DNA of 39,980 nucleotides. Origin: a virus. Lineage: Duplodnaviria; Heunggongvirae; Uroviricota; Caudoviricetes. The DNA lies in the IMG/VR virus record IMGVR_UViG_2617270954_000001. One strand, written 5' to 3'. The position numbers were made by a program, and so were the translations under genes. This document shows, piece by piece, positions 23,114-31,062 of the stretch (the first letter of the stretch is position 1; each line of letters opens with the position of its first letter). The notes beneath the pieces are model-generated. The model was not told the DNA's origin. It did no database searches and saw only the letters and a program-made list of their open reading frames with translations.

Positions 23114-23581
23114 TCATCGAAGGCATTGCGTCCTGATGTATTCCTGAAGCGTTCTCAGTGCTGTCTGGTCTCTGATGATTCCGTCCCGGATACCGAGAAC
23201 GTTTCGTCCAGCAACTGGAGAGAGTTCGACGGTGGCATCATTGCCCATGCCGGAGGCGCTGGAGGTTTCGGCTGAGGATGGCACAGGGCATTTTCCTTTG
23301 ACGAGCACCCTGCCACCATTATCAAGCTTGCGCCGAAGAGCATCATTTTCAGCTTTCGCATCAGCTAACTCCTTCGTGTATTTAGCATCGAGTACATCAG
23401 CAGCACGCTGGCGTTGCTGCATGTCAGTAATGGTGGCGGTCGCCTGCTTCAGCTCACTGACTTTTTTATCTCGCTGCTCTTTGTAGGCGATGGCGTTATC
23501 ACGGTAATGATTAACAGCCCATAACAGGCAGACGATGATGCAGATAACCAGAGCGGAGATAATCGCGGTGACTCTGCTCAT
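23114..23581 (-). CDS. Rz: Inner-membrane spanin Rz
   Basis: 155 aa; N-terminal TM helix plus coiled-coil periplasmic domain; immediately downstream of the endolysin. Confidence 0.85.
23155..23361 (-). CDS. Rz1: Outer-membrane lipoprotein spanin Rz1, embedded in Rz in a different frame
   Basis: Lipobox VAGC followed by a Pro-rich segment ([16 protein letters not shown]), lambda Rz1-like. Confidence 0.8.
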
Positions 23582-24054
23582 ACCTCAATCTCTCTGACCG
23601 TTCCGCCAGCCTCTTTGAATTTTGCAATCAGGCTGTCAGCCTTATGCTCGAACTGACCATAACCAGCGCCCGGCAGTGAAGCCCAGATATTGCTGCAACG
23701 GTCGATAGCCTGACGGATATCACCGCGATCAATCATCGGTAAAGCGCCACGCTCTTTAATCTGCTGCAATGCCACAGCGTCCTGGCTTTTGGGAGAGAAA
23801 TCTTTCAGGCCAAGCTGCTTACGATAGGCATCCCACCAACGGGAAAGAAGCTGGTAACGTCCGGCGGCTGTTGATTTGAGTTTGGGGTTTAGCGTGACAA
23901 GTTTGCGAGGGTGATCAGAGTAATCAGTGAATAGCTCTCCGCCTACAATGACGTCATAACCATGATTTCTGGTTTTCTGTCGTCCGTTATCAGTCCCCTC
24001 TGACCACGCCAGCATATCGAGGAACGCCTTACGTTGATTATTGATTTCCACCAT
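23578..24054 (-). CDS. R: Endolysin, lambda R-type lytic transglycosylase
   Basis: 158 aa; sequence essentially matches lambda R as I recall it. Confidence 0.95.
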
Positions 24055-24361
24055 CTTCTACTCCGGCTTTTTTAGCAGCGACGCGTTTGATAAGCGAACC
24101 AATCGAGTCAGTGCCGATGTAGCCGATGAACACGCTCGTTATATAAGCGAGATTGCTACTTAGTCCGGCGAAGTCGAGAAGGTCACGAATGAACCAGGCG
24201 ATAATGGCGCACATCGTTGCGTCGATTACTGTTTTTGTAAACGCACCGCCATTATATCTGCCGCGAAGGTACGCCATTGCAAACGCAAGGATTGCCCCGA
24301 TGCCTTGTTCCTTTGCCGCGAGAATGGCGGCTAACAGGTCATGTTTTTCTGGCATCTTCAT
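24038..24361 (-). CDS. S: Holin, lambda S-type with MKM dual start
   Basis: 107 aa [41 protein letters not shown]..., near-identical to lambda S107/S105. Confidence 0.95.
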
Positions 24362-24821: not shown

Positions 24822-25340
24822 CTAAATGGCTAATTGCATGTCAAGGCTTTTAACAGCAACATGCTTAACTTTCTCAACACGTTTACGCATTTTGAAAGCA
24901 TTTTGCATTGGCTGGTACAAAACAAATAACGACGCTTTCAGGATGTCGTCAATTTCGTTTCTACAGGTTGCCAGTGAAGGTTTTCTCCATCCCTCGCCAC
25001 CACGTCCACACATCTTGCGTGGCTTTGCAGTCGCGTGATAGTAGGATGCAATTGCTCGCTTAGATGAACCATGAGCGTAGTAGCTGAGGAGGATGCCAAA
25101 GGCTTTCTTGTCAATGTACATGACGGAATCGACGACCTGAGAAATCAACATTCCATCATCATCATTACACATTGGCCTTGTCATAATTCTTCCCGGCTCT
25201 ACGCTCTCCATGAACTTCGCTATTACGCTGCTCATGCGCTTTTCCAGACGACCTGAATAAACCCATGCGCCCCACAGTTCAAGCCAGCCATTCAGCCACT
25301 CATGCTGTTCTTTGGTGAGGTTTAGTTCTCTTATGCCCAT
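24822..25340 (-). CDS. Late-gene antiterminator Q-like (P22 gene 23 position)
   Basis: 172 aa; Cys-containing motifs; immediately upstream of the late terminator and lysis genes. Confidence 0.65.
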
Positions 25341-26002
25341 GCGCCTTCTCCCTGTACCTGAATCAATGTGAGGTTTCCGCAGAACACTGCTCCGGTATCG
25401 ATATACATTTGGTTGGCAAATTTAAGTGGTTTCACTGCTGGCGTATGACCAAAGATGAACGTGTCCGCGCCTTTGATTTCTTTCACGATCCCGTCTTGTG
25501 AGTTGCTGATTCGTTCGCGGTTCCAGATTACCTGCTGATGATCAACTGGCTTTCCAAACTCGTATTCGTCACAAGGATAATCGGCGTGGCAGATGACATA
25601 TTTTTTACCTTCGCTCACCAGTTCGATGATTAACGGAAGTTCATCTGCTTTATGAGCAAGAGCTTTAGCCAGAATTTCTTTGTCGTAATCGAGATTAAAG
25701 AACCAGCCACCGCCATTAAGCATCCAGTGATTGACGTTTCCGCGCTCTGATAAGCCATCAATCATCATTTGCTCATGGTTTCCACGTACAGCTCGGAACC
25801 AGGGGAATGTGATTAATTCCAGACATTCGACGTTCTCTGTACCGCGATCGACCAAATCGCCAACCGAGATAAGCAGGTCTTTTTTGGTGTCGAATCCTAT
25901 CGTCTCCAGTTTTTTCATCAGGTTCGTGTAGCATCCGTGCAGATCGCCAACTACCCAAATATTTCGGTATTTGCTGCCATCAATTTTTTCGTAATAGCGC
26001 AT
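25331..26002 (-). CDS. Ser/Thr protein phosphatase, lambda-PPase type (track ORF extends to 26077)
   Basis: Metallophosphatase motifs GDLHG, GDLVDRG, GNHE; near-identical to lambda orf221 from [23 protein letters not shown]. Confidence 0.95.
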
Positions 26003-26186
26003 CTCTTTCACTCCATCCGCGATGAACCATGAGAACGTCGTTGACGATGGCGTGCATTTTCCCGTCTTTATCATCAACGTATTTTCTGACCGTACCGCGA
26101 CTACATTTCAGTCTGCGTGCTACTTCTGTCTGGTTTCCGTATGCTTCAACGAGCATGTCTGGAATGGTTTTTACTGAGAACGTCAT
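25980..26186 (-). CDS. ninH: NinH
   Basis: 68 aa [37 protein letters not shown]..., matches lambda NinH as recalled. Confidence 0.9.
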
Positions 26187-26963: not shown

Positions 26964-27381
26964 TATTGGCGTCCTGCATCATGAGAAAGACAATCATGGC
27001 GGCGCGGAGTGGAGATTCACCGCAGAAGTAGTAGCCAGGAATATTTTCCCATTCCCAACAACCTTCCTCTAAATCACCTCCTGACCATGCGCACCATTCT
27101 TTTTCCGCTGTCATCCACATAGTGCTGATTTTGCTTTCAGTGATTATTGGCCACGCATATTCAGGATTATTGCAAGGATTGAAGCAATTTCCGTTTGAAG
27201 AACGGAAGCCATTAATATCCCTTTTTTGCGTCTGCCAAATAGGACCTCTTTCGTCAGTGGGGATCTCAGAATCGAAGTCTGCTTCGTCATCAGGTATGAA
27301 GAAATGCTCCTCCATATCTAAAGCCTCACATACTCGTCTGTTAATTTCAAAATCACTTAACTGTGAATAATCCATTGTCAT
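26956..27381 (-). CDS. Nin-region protein, NinX-like (track ORF extends to 27417)
   Basis: About 141 aa from [17 protein letters not shown]...; Trp/Cys-rich C-terminus; start overlaps ninE stop. Confidence 0.45.
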
Positions 27382-27554
27382 TTCCTCGCACGATGTCTTA
27401 GCCACCGGATATCCCACAGGTGAGCCGTGTAGTTGAAGGTTTTTACGTCAGATTCTTTTGGGATTGGCTTGCGTTTATTTCTGGAGCGTTTCGTTGGAAG
27501 GTATTTGCAGTTTTCGCAGATGATGTCGGTGAAACTTCGTCGCTGTCGTCTCAT
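27378..27554 (-). CDS. ninE: NinE (track ORF extends to 27599)
   Basis: [58 protein letters not shown], lambda NinE-like; start overlaps ninB stop (ATGA). Confidence 0.8.
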
Positions 27555-27961
27555 TCGTACCTCCTGTCGGTAAATCTGACACCCTGACCAATAGCCCATG
27601 CTGTCGTGTACTCAATCAGACTTGCCATACGCTTCACGCTCATCTGCGCGCTGCTTTCGCGAATGTTGACGTATTCGCCTTCAAGGCCGGGCAAAACATC
27701 AGCTTCCTGTTTTGTTGCCACTGCATGACCGCTAATCAACAAAACCTTCCATTGTTCCGGTTTTAACCATTTGCCGCACCATTGAACCTGACGAGCGATA
27801 TCCGCCAGCATCGCGTGAAATTTTGCGTTCTGGTCAAGGTTGCGCTTGTAGTCAGTAATGCGGATGGTGACTGGCTTGTCTTTATCGAGTGGTGTTGCGA
27901 GGATGGCGTTGATTGCGGCTTGCTGTTGTTGCTTACTTCGGAGGAAGATTGTTTGCTTCAC
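27551..27961 (-). CDS. ninB: NinB / Orf recombination mediator
   Basis: 136 aa; architecture and position as lambda NinB (…[31 protein letters not shown]…). Confidence 0.75.
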
Positions 27962-27972
27962 TGAACACTCCT

Positions 27973-28164
27973 TTATTTTTTATGCCTGTAACCCCATTCT
28001 TCCAGCAACCTTGCGGCGTACCACCCAAGAAACAAAGGAAAGAACATTACAATGAGATATGCCACGCCACGGTCAATGTTCGAAATTGACCAGATTACGA
28101 TGTAACCAGTGCAGGACAGGAATATTACAAACCCCAAAAAGCTACTTCGTCGACTCATGCTCAC
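27973..28164 (-). CDS. Small membrane protein, two predicted TM helices
   Basis: 63 aa with two hydrophobic stretches and basic termini. Confidence 0.4.
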   Translation of the reverse strand: MSMSRRSSFLGFVIFLSCTGYIVIWSISNIDRGVAYLIVMFFPLFLGWYAARLLEEWGYRHKK

Positions 28165-28445
28165 TCCTTCACTTTGATTCCAGCGGCGCGGATGGATTCA
28201 TCGATATCGTCACGGTCGTACACAGCAATAGCATCACTGACAAACCATACAGGCAACTCAATTTCAATAGCTGCTCGCGATGCCTGCCACGTTTGCCAGT
28301 GGCCTTGAACATCGTCCATCACGTATTGACCACCAATATCACCACTGCCAATTTCATGGTGATTTTCAGGGTAACGGATAAGGTCTGATGATTCGCCTCC
28401 ACGTCGCAACCAACTTTCTTCAAACTGCTTTCTTGATTCGTCCAT
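28161..28445 (-). CDS. Hypothetical acidic protein
   Basis: 94-aa ORF; start overlaps downstream gene stop; no recognisable motif. Confidence 0.4.
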   Translation of the reverse strand: MDESRKQFEESWLRRGGESSDLIRYPENHHEIGSGDIGGQYVMDDVQGHWQTWQASRAAIEIELPVWFVSDAIAVYDRDDIDESIRAAGIKVKE

Positions 28446-28462
28446 CGATACTTACCCTCAGT

Positions 28463-28669
28463 TCAACTCACAAAACGCCACGCCATTTTTGCTACGACAA
28501 CAGGCATAACACCGATAATCACCCAGACAAATGCAGCGCCAAACAACGTATACCATGGGTCTTTACCGTCATTCACAAGACGAATGTAGCTATGCAGAAC
28601 AATAAAAAACGTCAGAAGAATCCATCCAACGCCAACGCATTTGAATGCGACGAGCATAAACTCAGCCAC
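28463..28669 (-). CDS. Small membrane protein, two predicted TM helices
   Basis: 68 aa with two hydrophobic stretches. Confidence 0.4.
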   Translation of the reverse strand: MAEFMLVAFKCVGVGWILLTFFIVLHSYIRLVNDGKDPWYTLFGAAFVWVIIGVMPVVVAKMAWRFVS

Positions 28670-28741
28670 GATTTACTCTCCCCCAAATAAAAAGGCCTGC
28701 GATTACCAGCAGGCCTGTTATTAGCTCAGTGATGTAGATGG

Positions 28742-30118
28742 TCATACGTCAGCCCCTTGTGCATATCGTCTGCCACGCGCAGCAGGTGCATTTGATGCTG
28801 TGCAAATCTGTCTGGCTTCATCCTGGTCACATGCAACAAAGTGTCCGTTACAGAACCGCTGGTAAACCGTACCAAGCGAGCCAAAACGGTTTTTCGTCAC
28901 AATGATTTCAGCAAATGGCGCGGCGCTACTGTTCTCGTCATATACCGCTTCCCGATAGAGCATGATGATTGAGTCTGCGTCCTGTTCAATGCTTCCTGAA
29001 TCACGCAAATCTGCGTTTGTCGGGCGTTTGTTTGGTCGCTTCTCAACATCGCGCGAAAGCTGACTTAGGGAGATAACAGGCGTTTTCAGGTCTTTCGCCA
29101 TCGCCTTAAGGCTTCCGGAGATGTGAGCAATTGCGAGGTCGTTGCGATCTGCTTTCGGCTTCTCAATCAGGCCAAGATAATCCGCCATGATGAGTGACAG
29201 GTTTGGATTTTCCTGTTTGTGCCGTTCTGCGATTGAGCGTATTTCTTCGACCGATAACCGCGAGGCATCGACTACCCATACATCCAAATCTGCAAGCTGA
29301 CTCATGCCGTTAGCAACACGCGCCCAGCCTTCGTCATCCATCGATGCAGGATTTCGCAGCACGCTAACCGACATCCTCCCGGCGTTGGCAATGCTTCGCT
29401 CTGCAATCTGCAATGCGCTCATTTCCATTGAGAAAATCAACACTCCGCGCCGGACGTCAGAACCAGGAATAACGCGGCTTGCAACGCCTTCGGCAATCTT
29501 CAGCGCCAGTTCGGTTTTCCCCATACCAGGACGAGCAGCGATTATCACCAGGTCTTCTGCGTTCATCCCTCCGGTGATGGCGTCAAGTTCTTCGATTCCG
29601 GTCTTCAGGGTATCTGACTCTTCTCCGTTCCTCAGACGCCTGTCAAGCGTGTCAGTGTAGTCAGTGATGATTTCCCCTAACCGTACAGGTTTAACCTCGT
29701 CACGGGGCTTTCTGATAGCTGAAAGACGCTTCACAAGCTCATCCATCGCCTGACTCGATGCGTCGATGGTTCCGCTCTGAATTGGTTCACGCATTTCATC
29801 CATGATTTCCAGCACCAGACGGCGGTGATAGTTATCCGCGACCATTCCGGCATATCCCTTCAGGTTTGCGGCACTCGGGCAGTTTTTGCTGGTCATCAGG
29901 ATTGACGTGAAATGCTCCTCTCCGCACGCCTCGGCAACCATCAGCGCGTCGATTAGGTTTCTGTTTCGCGCCTGCTTGCGGATAACCTCGAAGGCTTTCC
30001 GGTAGAGCGGAATTGAAAACGCTTCCGGCTCCAGCGTTGCCAGAACGTCGCTGGCGGTTGGTGTTAATCCACCAATCAGCAGGCCACCGATAACGCTCGC
30101 TTCGATATCCTGTTTCAT
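28742..30118 (-). CDS. Replicative DNA helicase, DnaB family (P22 gene 12-like)
   Basis: 458 aa; Walker A ARPGMGKT; DnaB-type N-terminal domain; start overlaps initiator gene stop. Confidence 0.9.
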
Positions 30119-31062
30119 GCAATCCCCCTGTCTGCAAACTTCCCTTCCCGAACTCCCGTTAACGAATCTTCCCTCAGCAGGTAATCAAAATCGGCCGTCC
30201 AGCCAGTGTCGTTGTCTCCGAAGTAAAACGGCTTGGCCTGATGTACAAACGCCCTGACATACGCTCTGAAACCGTCCACGTTTGGCGTTTTCAGTTGCGG
30301 GATGATTTTCTTCAGGCGGCGTTTGCGTTTCTCGTTGACCGCAACAGCGTGTGGCAGTCTGTCACCGACTTCGGTGTTGTAGGCGTTCAGGAAGGATTCG
30401 TAGTCGATTCGTTCTGCCTTGCGACGTTCAGGTTTAACCTGCCCATCGCCGCCCCCATTGGGGGGTAGGGGGGTATTATTTATATTCTTGTTAATACCTT
30501 CTTGTTCATGATGTGCGGTTGTTTGTGCGGCTTCATGTGCGCTTTCATGTGCGGCATGTACTCTGAAAGCCGCGCCATTGCTGGCTTCGTCATGTGCGGC
30601 ATCATGTGCGGTTGTTTGTGCGGCTTCATGTGCGGGTGAATTGTCCATTTTTTGAGCGTATTCATGGTAATTTGTGATGGTGATCACACGACCTTTTTGC
30701 TTCTCTCCATCAATGGAGATCATCCCCTCTTTCACAAAAACCTGAAGCATCCGCTCAACCTGATCACGGCTTGCTGGCTTGCCATGTCTGTCGCATAACT
30801 GAAGACCTAAATCAGCTGCTGTCACAACCAGTTGACCGGGTTGCAGATGCCATTCATGACCTTTGAAATTCGCTTTGTATGGCTTTCTGGCGGCATTCAG
30901 GAGAAGGTTTTCCCACAGGGTGCGAAGATAAACATCTTTCGCCCATGACTGTTTCAGAATGCTCCGGTACAACGGAATGTAACCAGTTTTCTGGTTCTCC
31001 ATCCTGTTGCTCCTGCGCTCGTGTGCGGCGCTGAAATCGTAGATTTTTGCTGTATTGCTCAT
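30115..31062 (-). CDS. Replication initiator, lambda O / P22 gp18-like
   Basis: 315 aa upstream of the helicase; contains a repetitive His/Ala-rich linker encoded by DNA iterons. Confidence 0.7.
30500..30640. repeat. Replication-origin iterons inside the initiator gene
   Basis: At least 8 copies of TGTGCGG at roughly 10-bp spacing (catgtgcggcatcatgtgcggttgtttgtgcggcttcatgtgcgg...). Confidence 0.7.

Follow-up and report, generated by a model that had tools for sequence, protein, structure and literature searches.

The window analysed here is a tailed-phage sequence of 39,980 nucleotides (nt) (Caudoviricetes; IMG/VR record IMGVR_UViG_2617270954_000001), in which the interval between a DnaB-like helicase gene and ninB consists of three closely spaced minus-strand genes, each with a ribosome-binding site. 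These open reading frames (ORF1, ORF2 and ORF3), together with the ninA mini-ORF upstream of them, are probably independent, non-essential, delayed-early accessory cassettes at the start of the nin region. ORF1 (28463..28669, minus strand, GTG start; phrog_1165) encodes a predicted two-helix inner-membrane hairpin of 68 amino acids (aa), ORF2 (28161..28445, minus strand, ATG start; Pfam PF26207, Phage_phiTE_015; phrog_343) an acidic soluble protein of 94 aa, and ORF3 (27973..28158, minus strand, ATG start) a further predicted two-helix membrane hairpin of 61 aa, from a rare family that is in no catalogue searched. ORF1 and ORF2 belong to catalogued families of unknown function, and ORF3 is predicted to encode a small membrane protein that is new, uncatalogued and systematically left out of annotations. 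Judged by their ratios of non-synonymous to synonymous substitution rates (dN/dS 0.17–0.42), ORF1–3 are protein-coding genes under purifying selection. The distribution of the genes among related loci is patchy, and therefore they are presumably dispensable for growth; the purifying selection acting on them is moderate, which therefore points to a benefit that is real but conditional.

Mosaic Cassettes and Conserved Linkers

Regarding the composition of the interval, 80 viral contigs whose NinB is 98–100% identical to that of the window were surveyed, and all ORFs from the replication gene up to ninB were catalogued. Approximately 23 small-ORF families are combined in 30 arrangements. Of the 80 loci, 69 contain the ORF2 family, 45 ORF1, 15 ORF3 and 11 lambda-type Ren. 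At this level of NinB identity, ORF1 is thus missing from 35 loci, ORF2 from 11 and ORF3 from 65. ORF1, ORF2 and ORF3 assort independently of one another, with free pairing between the alleles of ORF1 and those of ORF2. Other families in the interval are a DUF7301 protein, a 60-aa two-helix protein (designated C4tm) and a one-helix protein. Predicted membrane proteins account for 81 of the 228 interval ORFs (36%) and belong to four unrelated families; when ORF1 was compared with ORF3 and with C4tm profile to profile (hhalign), no relationship was revealed (probability of approximately 1%). The C4tm family (MVNAFICSLFLVAIFHGF...), for which neither Pfam nor PHROGs gave a significant match, is found in 14 of the 80 loci, including L008, L011, L012, L017, L022, L055, L065 and L068. 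A PF26207 gene follows C4tm in 14 of 14 cases, and a two-helix gene directly precedes 50 of the 73 PF26207 copies. Most ORF2-family copies (57/73) adjoin ninB, with the joint ...GTGAAGGAGTAAcgATG.

DNA identity between the window and the other loci alternates along the interval, with linkers at 90–100% overall versus cassette bodies at 35–65%, the latter rising to near 100% where the allele is the same. The linkers used as joints are the tR2 terminator block (100%), the ORF1 tail with the spacer and the ORF2 head (approximately 90–100%), the ORF2 core (73–92%) and the ORF2 tail (91–97%). The ORF2 tail (GTGAAGGAGTAA) normally provides the ribosome-binding site of ninB. The linker CTGGAxTxAAAGTGAAGGAGTGAGC encodes the PF26207 end ...AGIKVKE* and, in another frame, the DUF7301 end ...SLDLK*; the DUF7301 frame was seen in L009, L013, L014 and L020 (locus positions of approximately 3150–3220), as compared with 28161–28193 in the window. 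Because it is read in two frames in the PF26207 and DUF7301 genes, this linker is evidently conserved as DNA, that is, as a recombination joint and ribosome-binding site, and not as protein. The 3′ end of ORF1 also appears to act as a recombination joint common to different genes, because an unrelated small ORF in L018, located approximately 60 nt upstream of ninB, ends with the tail of ORF1 (...KMAWRFVS*).

The left joint and the right joint of the ORF3 cassette never vary, and AAGGAGTG is present at each. The Shine–Dalgarno (SD) sequence of ninB is AAGGAG at 27973–27968, and the start codon of ninB is GTG in the window and wherever ORF3 is directly upstream. In loci without ORF3, ninB starts with ATG and its SD sequence is derived from the last ORF2 codons. 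When another cassette stands after ORF3, 13 nt from the 5′ end of ninB (GTGAAGCAAAC...) are left behind ORF3 as a remnant. These start codons and remnants were compared in the window (27959–27973, minus strand) and in L008–L014, L020, L027, L068 and L089, and the remnant appears to record the order of recombination events. Among phages whose ninB is nearly identical, the three genes have been gained, lost and re-paired independently, with recombination at the short conserved DNA linkers. The nin region has been described as a non-essential, tightly packed pool of 30–50 genes, of which each phage carries approximately 10 (PMC5630979, PMC8022706).

Properties of the Three Genes

A preliminary description of this DNA had placed three tightly packed genes between the helicase gene and ninB, with two membrane proteins around an acidic soluble one. 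This arrangement is confirmed, on the minus strand: the spacings are 17 nt between ORF1 and ORF2, 2 nt between ORF2 and ORF3 and 11 nt between ORF3 and ninB, and two hydropathy peaks are found in each of the outer proteins. Homologues are present at the same position in related phages. SD sequences are present as well and overlap the upstream stop codons, that of ninB overlapping the ORF3 stop. The base composition of ORF1–3 is unremarkable (43–48% GC versus 46% for the window). Two antisense ORFs on the plus strand, 28059–28388 (109 aa) and 28388–28690 (100 aa), shadow ORF1–ORF3. These appear unsupported as genes, as it is the minus strand that agrees with the homologues, with the ribosome-binding sites and with the pattern of substitutions.

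ORF1 is preceded by the SD sequence GGGGGAGAG at 28684–28676, 6 nt before its GTG start codon. Its product aligns over residues 1–68 with profile positions 1–68 of phrog_1165 (E=1.6e-38), a family found in 107 phage records, among them HK620, HK022, H-19B, mEp213, Salmonella P22-like phages and 48 Stx2a phages. The family comprises approximately 43 protein clusters from Escherichia and Salmonella, essentially all of 68 aa, down to 50% identity, and its dN/dS is approximately 0.33 at a dS of approximately 1. In the alignment, W49, G53 and P56 are invariant, and the proteins end with a KMAWxF tail. Kyte–Doolittle hydropathy peaks at residues 7–25 and 42–60 of ORF1 and at residues 7–25 and 31–49 of ORF3; the two small proteins are unrelated, and each is predicted to have two hydrophobic helices. 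The termini of both are basic, which, together with hydropathy, suggests a hairpin with cytoplasmic N- and C-termini (N-in/C-in). A terminator-like site inside ORF1 (28633..28608) has only three GC pairs and is within chance expectation.

ORF2 has GAGGG 9 nt upstream of its ATG, and the encoded protein has a net charge of −10, an isoelectric point of 4.6 and no hydrophobic stretch. Membership in its two families is based on hidden Markov models: the match to phrog_343 has E=1.2e-27, and PF26207, a family without known function, was assigned by a precomputed match on homologues up to 99% identical. RefSeq uses the name “phiTE_015 family protein”. There are 311 database relatives, including Sf6 gp48, ST64T orf-86, HK022 gp59 and Pseudomonas jumbo-phage proteins; the dN/dS of ORF2 is approximately 0.42, with dS saturated. 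The feature of the PF26207 family is its layout of conserved linkers, namely, an MDESRKQFEE head, a W..WQASRAAIE core (W..WQASRAAIEIELP) and an IRAAGIKVKE tail, with two hypervariable segments in between. Approximately 18 first-segment and 18 second-segment alleles were observed in 42 combinations in a sample that was fetched by similarity to the query and is partly biased. Some members carry an extension, either N-terminal and Cys-rich (CxxC...CxC) or of the sequence MRWAIKHKSGR. In the predicted layout of ORF2, a first helix is followed by a disordered loop, then by a long Trp-rich helix and a small hairpin, and lastly by another helix. Foldseek comparison of the ORF2 models with PDB and BFVD gave no match at E<=0.001, the best hit being a nameless 89-aa viral protein (E=8.6e-3), and a sequence-profile search of PDB gave nothing below E=0.3. 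Among distant relatives (phage Skate and Pseudomonas phages), the neighbouring genes are only hypothetical early genes. The literature searched contained nothing on PF26207, on phiTE_015, on the two RefSeq protein accessions or on anti-defence functions in the nin region of lambdoid phages, and no description of the shuffling of PF26207 variable segments.

The preliminary description gave sizes of 68, 94 and 63 aa, of which the first two stand. The 63-aa version of ORF3 (28164..27973) begins at the first GTG, which lies within the SD sequence AAGGAG (28169–28164). As this SD sequence covers the GTG and precedes the ATG at 28158 by 5 nt, the ORF3 product is almost certainly 61 aa; database homologues are called likewise. 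Its C-terminus is charged and ends with RLLEEWGYRHKK. ORF3 is represented by 4 clusters among 5.8 billion proteins and by 4 phage records, and no match was obtained in Pfam, PHROG, NCBIfam or PADLOC. A search of the ORF3 profile against 1.84 billion representatives gave zero matches, ORF3 itself included, so that a library gap or composition filters may weaken this null result. At the DNA level, 195 (approximately 3.6%) of the 5426 complete E. coli genomes contain ORF3 at an identity of 95% or more. In the RefSeq records listed, ORF3 is never annotated, and a gap of approximately 200 nt is left between the PF26207 gene and ninB. A divergent homologue in L087 and L088 (74% identity, 61 codons) is also directly after the DnaB helicase gene; 22 synonymous and 23 non-synonymous differences separate it from ORF3 (dN/dS 0.17, dS 1.03). 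The frame is intact in every locus retrieved, and the hydrophobic pattern is conserved. From these substitution and frame data, ORF3 is very probably a real gene.

Terminator, ninA and Expression

A tR2-type intrinsic terminator (28685..28716, minus strand), identified by a terminator scan and RNA folding, and the ninA mini-ORF (28662..28745, minus strand; 27 codons), read from the sequence and matched to phrog_5907 (E=1.3e-18), are located between the helicase gene and ORF1. Both were overlooked in the preliminary description. The hairpin (28716..28693, plus the T-run) consists of the stem AGGCCTGC / GCAGGCCT with an 8-nt loop, followed by TTTTATTT. It is nearly unchanged and was detected in approximately 80% of the 80 loci, upstream of almost every ORF1 copy, and the HK620 annotation has terminator tR2 at the equivalent site. 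The ninA product is hydrophobic. Its ATG overlaps the helicase stop codon (ATGA), its frame extends across the hairpin, and it ends in a TGA that shares bases with the GTG start of ORF1 (GTGGCTGA). HK620 and SPN9CC annotate an identical 84-nt ORF as ninA. In HK022-type loci, the hairpin is kept and the ninA frame is absent upstream of it; therefore, ninA may lack gene function. A ribosome on ninA could in principle hinder the tR2 hairpin and thereby couple helicase translation to read-through and ORF1 initiation.

A promoter scan detected no sigma-70-like promoter on either strand of 27400–29200, and an Rfam scan of 27300–29100 detected no RNA family. As no promoter-like site is found and an intrinsic terminator is directly upstream, transcription of the interval would require antiterminated read-through. 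Considering this position and the biology of lambda and P22, ORF1–3 are probably delayed-early lytic genes that are transcribed only upon N-type antitermination past tR2 and that are silent in the lysogen.

Genomic Context

All genes of this part of the window are on the minus strand. The left border of the interval is the DnaB-like replicative helicase gene (28742..30118), whose product matches Pfam DnaB_C (E=9.5e-78) and the DnaB N-terminal domain (E=4e-13) and is named “replicative DNA helicase” in RefSeq; the gene for an O-type replication protein (31062..30115) lies upstream of it. The right border is ninB (27551..27961), which encodes an Orf-family recombination mediator (Pfam NinB, E=1.1e-55). 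The direction of transcription is from O through the helicase gene, the tR2 hairpin, ORF1–3, ninB, ninE, ninX, ninF, ninG and the metallophosphatase gene to Q. The calcineurin-like metallophosphatase gene (25331–26077; PF00149, E=1.3e-16) is directly upstream of Q (25340..24822) and sits where the NinI (orf221) Ser/Thr phosphatase gene does in lambda. After Q, a lysis cassette (24361..23114) encodes a lambda-S-type holin (PF05106, E=5e-30), a 158-aa ORF at the endolysin position, for which no Pfam match was obtained, and Rz.

A prophage of E. coli NCCP15648 matches the segment with 100% identity, and Lederbergvirus vB_EcoP-611R6, whose record has cro and cII upstream of the replication genes, matches it with 99.2%. 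Therefore, the interval belongs to the delayed-early part of the PR operon, the rightward early operon (cro–cII–O–helicase–nin–Q), of a P22-like (Lederbergvirus-type) lambdoid prophage.

Proposed Mechanism and Alternative Explanations

ORF1 and ORF3 may insert in the inner membrane as N-in/C-in hairpins and bind membrane components of the host or of an incoming phage during lytic growth. Such binding would keep out the DNA of superinfecting phages or weaken abortive-infection effectors that are anchored in the membrane. ORF2, a rapidly evolving protein, would bind or inhibit a variable protein of the host or of a competitor in the cytoplasm, and its hypervariable segments are in keeping with the tracking of such a partner. 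As a whole, this mechanism of membrane hairpins plus binder is proposed tentatively and is more doubtful than credible; the greater confidence expressed above covers the anatomy and the accessory-cassette reading only. An exclusion or counter-exclusion role, also named as a candidate in the preliminary description, is possible, and no supporting evidence was found for it.

Several points weigh against this interpretation. Searches of Pfam, NCBIfam, PADLOC and PHROG for ORF1–3 and of PDB for ORF2 gave only families of unknown function or nothing and hence no functional link. The C-terminal tail of ORF1 is 92% identical, versus approximately 62% for the gene body; its conservation is at least partly that of a DNA-level linker and thus says little in favour of a specific protein contact. 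The AlphaFold models of ORF2 are modest, with predicted local distance difference test scores (pLDDT) of 63 and 70 from alignments of 25 and 51 sequences, respectively. Close ORF3 variants differ almost only non-synonymously (2–5 differences each), with a single synonymous change in one variant, and these counts are too low for any interpretation. One ninB allele was used to choose all the survey loci, which are phylogenetically non-independent. The timing of expression is deduced from position, and promoters that are weak or non-canonical could escape a simple scan.

The preliminary description pointed out that lambda has ren at this position. The idea that ORF1–3 are functional replacements of ren, acting as escape factors against Rex-type exclusion, draws on their location roughly near the ren site of lambda, and a membrane antagonist is conceivable, RexB being a membrane protein. 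Ren (protein cluster C5 of the survey, 96 aa, soluble) shows no BLAST link to the ORF1, ORF2 or ORF3 clusters, however. It directly follows the replication gene in 11 of 11 loci, the tR2 hairpin was detected in 10 of these and always comes after it, and most Ren loci also carry ORF1, ORF2 or ORF3 homologues, located after the hairpin. Since Ren is upstream of tR2 and co-occurs with ORF1–3, these genes occupy the slot between tR2 and ninB and not the ren slot; the positional argument for exclusion escape fails, and replacement of ren is very improbable. Holin-like and toxin-like functions were also put forward. Class II holins such as S21 resemble ORF1 and ORF3 in size and topology, and with 61–68 aa, two hydrophobic helices, probable N-in/C-in orientation and a charged C-terminus, as judged by hydropathy and charge only, one or both proteins would be compatible with a holin or antiholin that permeabilises or depolarises the membrane and tunes the timing of lysis. 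Nevertheless, both genes are in the early operon, approximately 4 kb upstream of Q; Q is followed by a complete lysis cassette with its own lambda-S-type holin; neither protein matches a holin family in Pfam or PHROGs at E<=1; and both are missing from many otherwise similar phages. A part in lysis is accordingly very improbable. One of the membrane ORFs could instead be a toxin, either of a host-killing “kil” type or from a type I toxin–antitoxin or abortive-infection system, as small hydrophobic proteins are often toxic if over-expressed. Known type I toxins are mostly single-helix proteins accompanied by an antisense RNA, whereas two helices are found here, with no promoter-like site on either strand, hence no antisense promoter, and no Rfam match. 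No Hok-type or other toxin or defence model matched in Pfam or PADLOC, and the genes are in the sense orientation inside a polycistronic operon with coupled translation signals, which makes a toxin quite improbable.

An alternative role for ORF2 would be as a partner of NinB in recombination instead of a host-interacting protein. The gene is usually directly upstream of ninB, as in the 57 abutting copies mentioned above, and its last codons form the ribosome-binding site of ninB. The ORF2 family is also found without an adjacent ninB in Skate and in Pseudomonas jumbo and podophages, however; some loci carry two ORF2-family copies, and ORF3 separates ORF2 from ninB in the window. Moreover, hypervariable segments are unexpected beside the conserved NinB (dN/dS 0.02–0.1), and we regard this partnership as distinctly unlikely. 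As for ORF3, it is unlikely that this ORF, along with the ninA mini-ORF, is an open frame left by recombination at ribosome-binding-site joints and not a functional gene. The RefSeq pipeline calls ORF3 in none of the 195 genomes, only four clusters exist worldwide, the exhaustive profile search was empty, the close variants show the non-synonymous excess described above, and duplicated AAGGAGTG joints flank the cassette. Set against this are the dN/dS of 0.17 relative to the 74%-identical homologue, which keeps 61 codons and the position after the helicase gene, the optimal SD sequence and ATG, the intact frame in all retrieved loci and the retained hydrophobic pattern. The accessory-cassette reading of ORF1–3 could be extended by viewing the stretch from tR2 to ninB as a dedicated hotspot for a two-part counter-defence or exclusion module, in which an interchangeable two-helix hairpin from one of several non-homologous families (ORF1, ORF3 or C4tm) is combined with an acidic PF26207 protein whose shuffled hypervariable segments set the specificity. 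The hairpin gene before 50 of 73 PF26207 copies, the invariable succession of C4tm and PF26207 (14/14) and the 36% of membrane ORFs favour such a module. On the other hand, partner alleles assort freely, ORF3 is never followed by PF26207, and shared recombination linkers could explain the adjacency; this extension is thus also unlikely.

Relationship to Known Systems

The interval shares its position in the operon, between tR2 and Q, with ninA–ninH and ninX/Y/Z of lambda and P22 and with the equivalents in HK620, HK022 and Sf6. As with other lambdoid nin accessory genes, ORF1–3 show tight packing, coupled start and stop signals, mosaic presence and mostly unknown function. Direct homologues at the interval are HK022 gp58 (ORF1) and gp59 (ORF2), with ORF1 also in the HK620, H-19B, mEp213 and Stx2a phages and ORF2 homologues in the same position in Sf6 (gp48) and ST64T (orf-86). 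The classical named nin genes whose roles are known (NinB/Orf, NinG/Rap, RusA and NinI phosphatase) encode soluble enzymes that act on DNA or protein, whereas ORF1 and ORF3 are predicted membrane hairpins. Lambda Ren is likewise the product of a small gene that lies after the replication genes and before ninB and is non-essential, as ORF1–3 presumably are, but it is non-homologous, has no hydrophobic peak and is encoded upstream of tR2. T4 Imm is a small early gene product with two transmembrane helices and cytoplasmic termini. The resemblance of ORF1 and ORF3 to T4 Imm and to class II holins (phage 21 S68/S71) is in size and topology, with no sequence similarity. No family of known exclusion proteins (T4 Imm, P22 SieA, HK97 gp15) was matched by ORF1–3 in Pfam, PHROGs or PADLOC.

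Biological Significance

The value of these results is mainly bookkeeping, and nothing in them would surprise specialists in lambdoid phages. A real 61-aa membrane-protein gene, omitted by RefSeq in approximately 3.6% of complete E. coli genomes, is pinned down, and the stretch from tR2 to ninB is recognized as rich in small membrane proteins of unrelated families. The widespread PF26207 family is assembled from two independently shuffled variable segments, a pattern typical of arms-race proteins. If any of these proteins proved to be an exclusion or counter-defence factor, this small and easily deleted interval of model phages (HK620, HK022, Sf6 and Stx2a phages) would be a convenient source of new ones.

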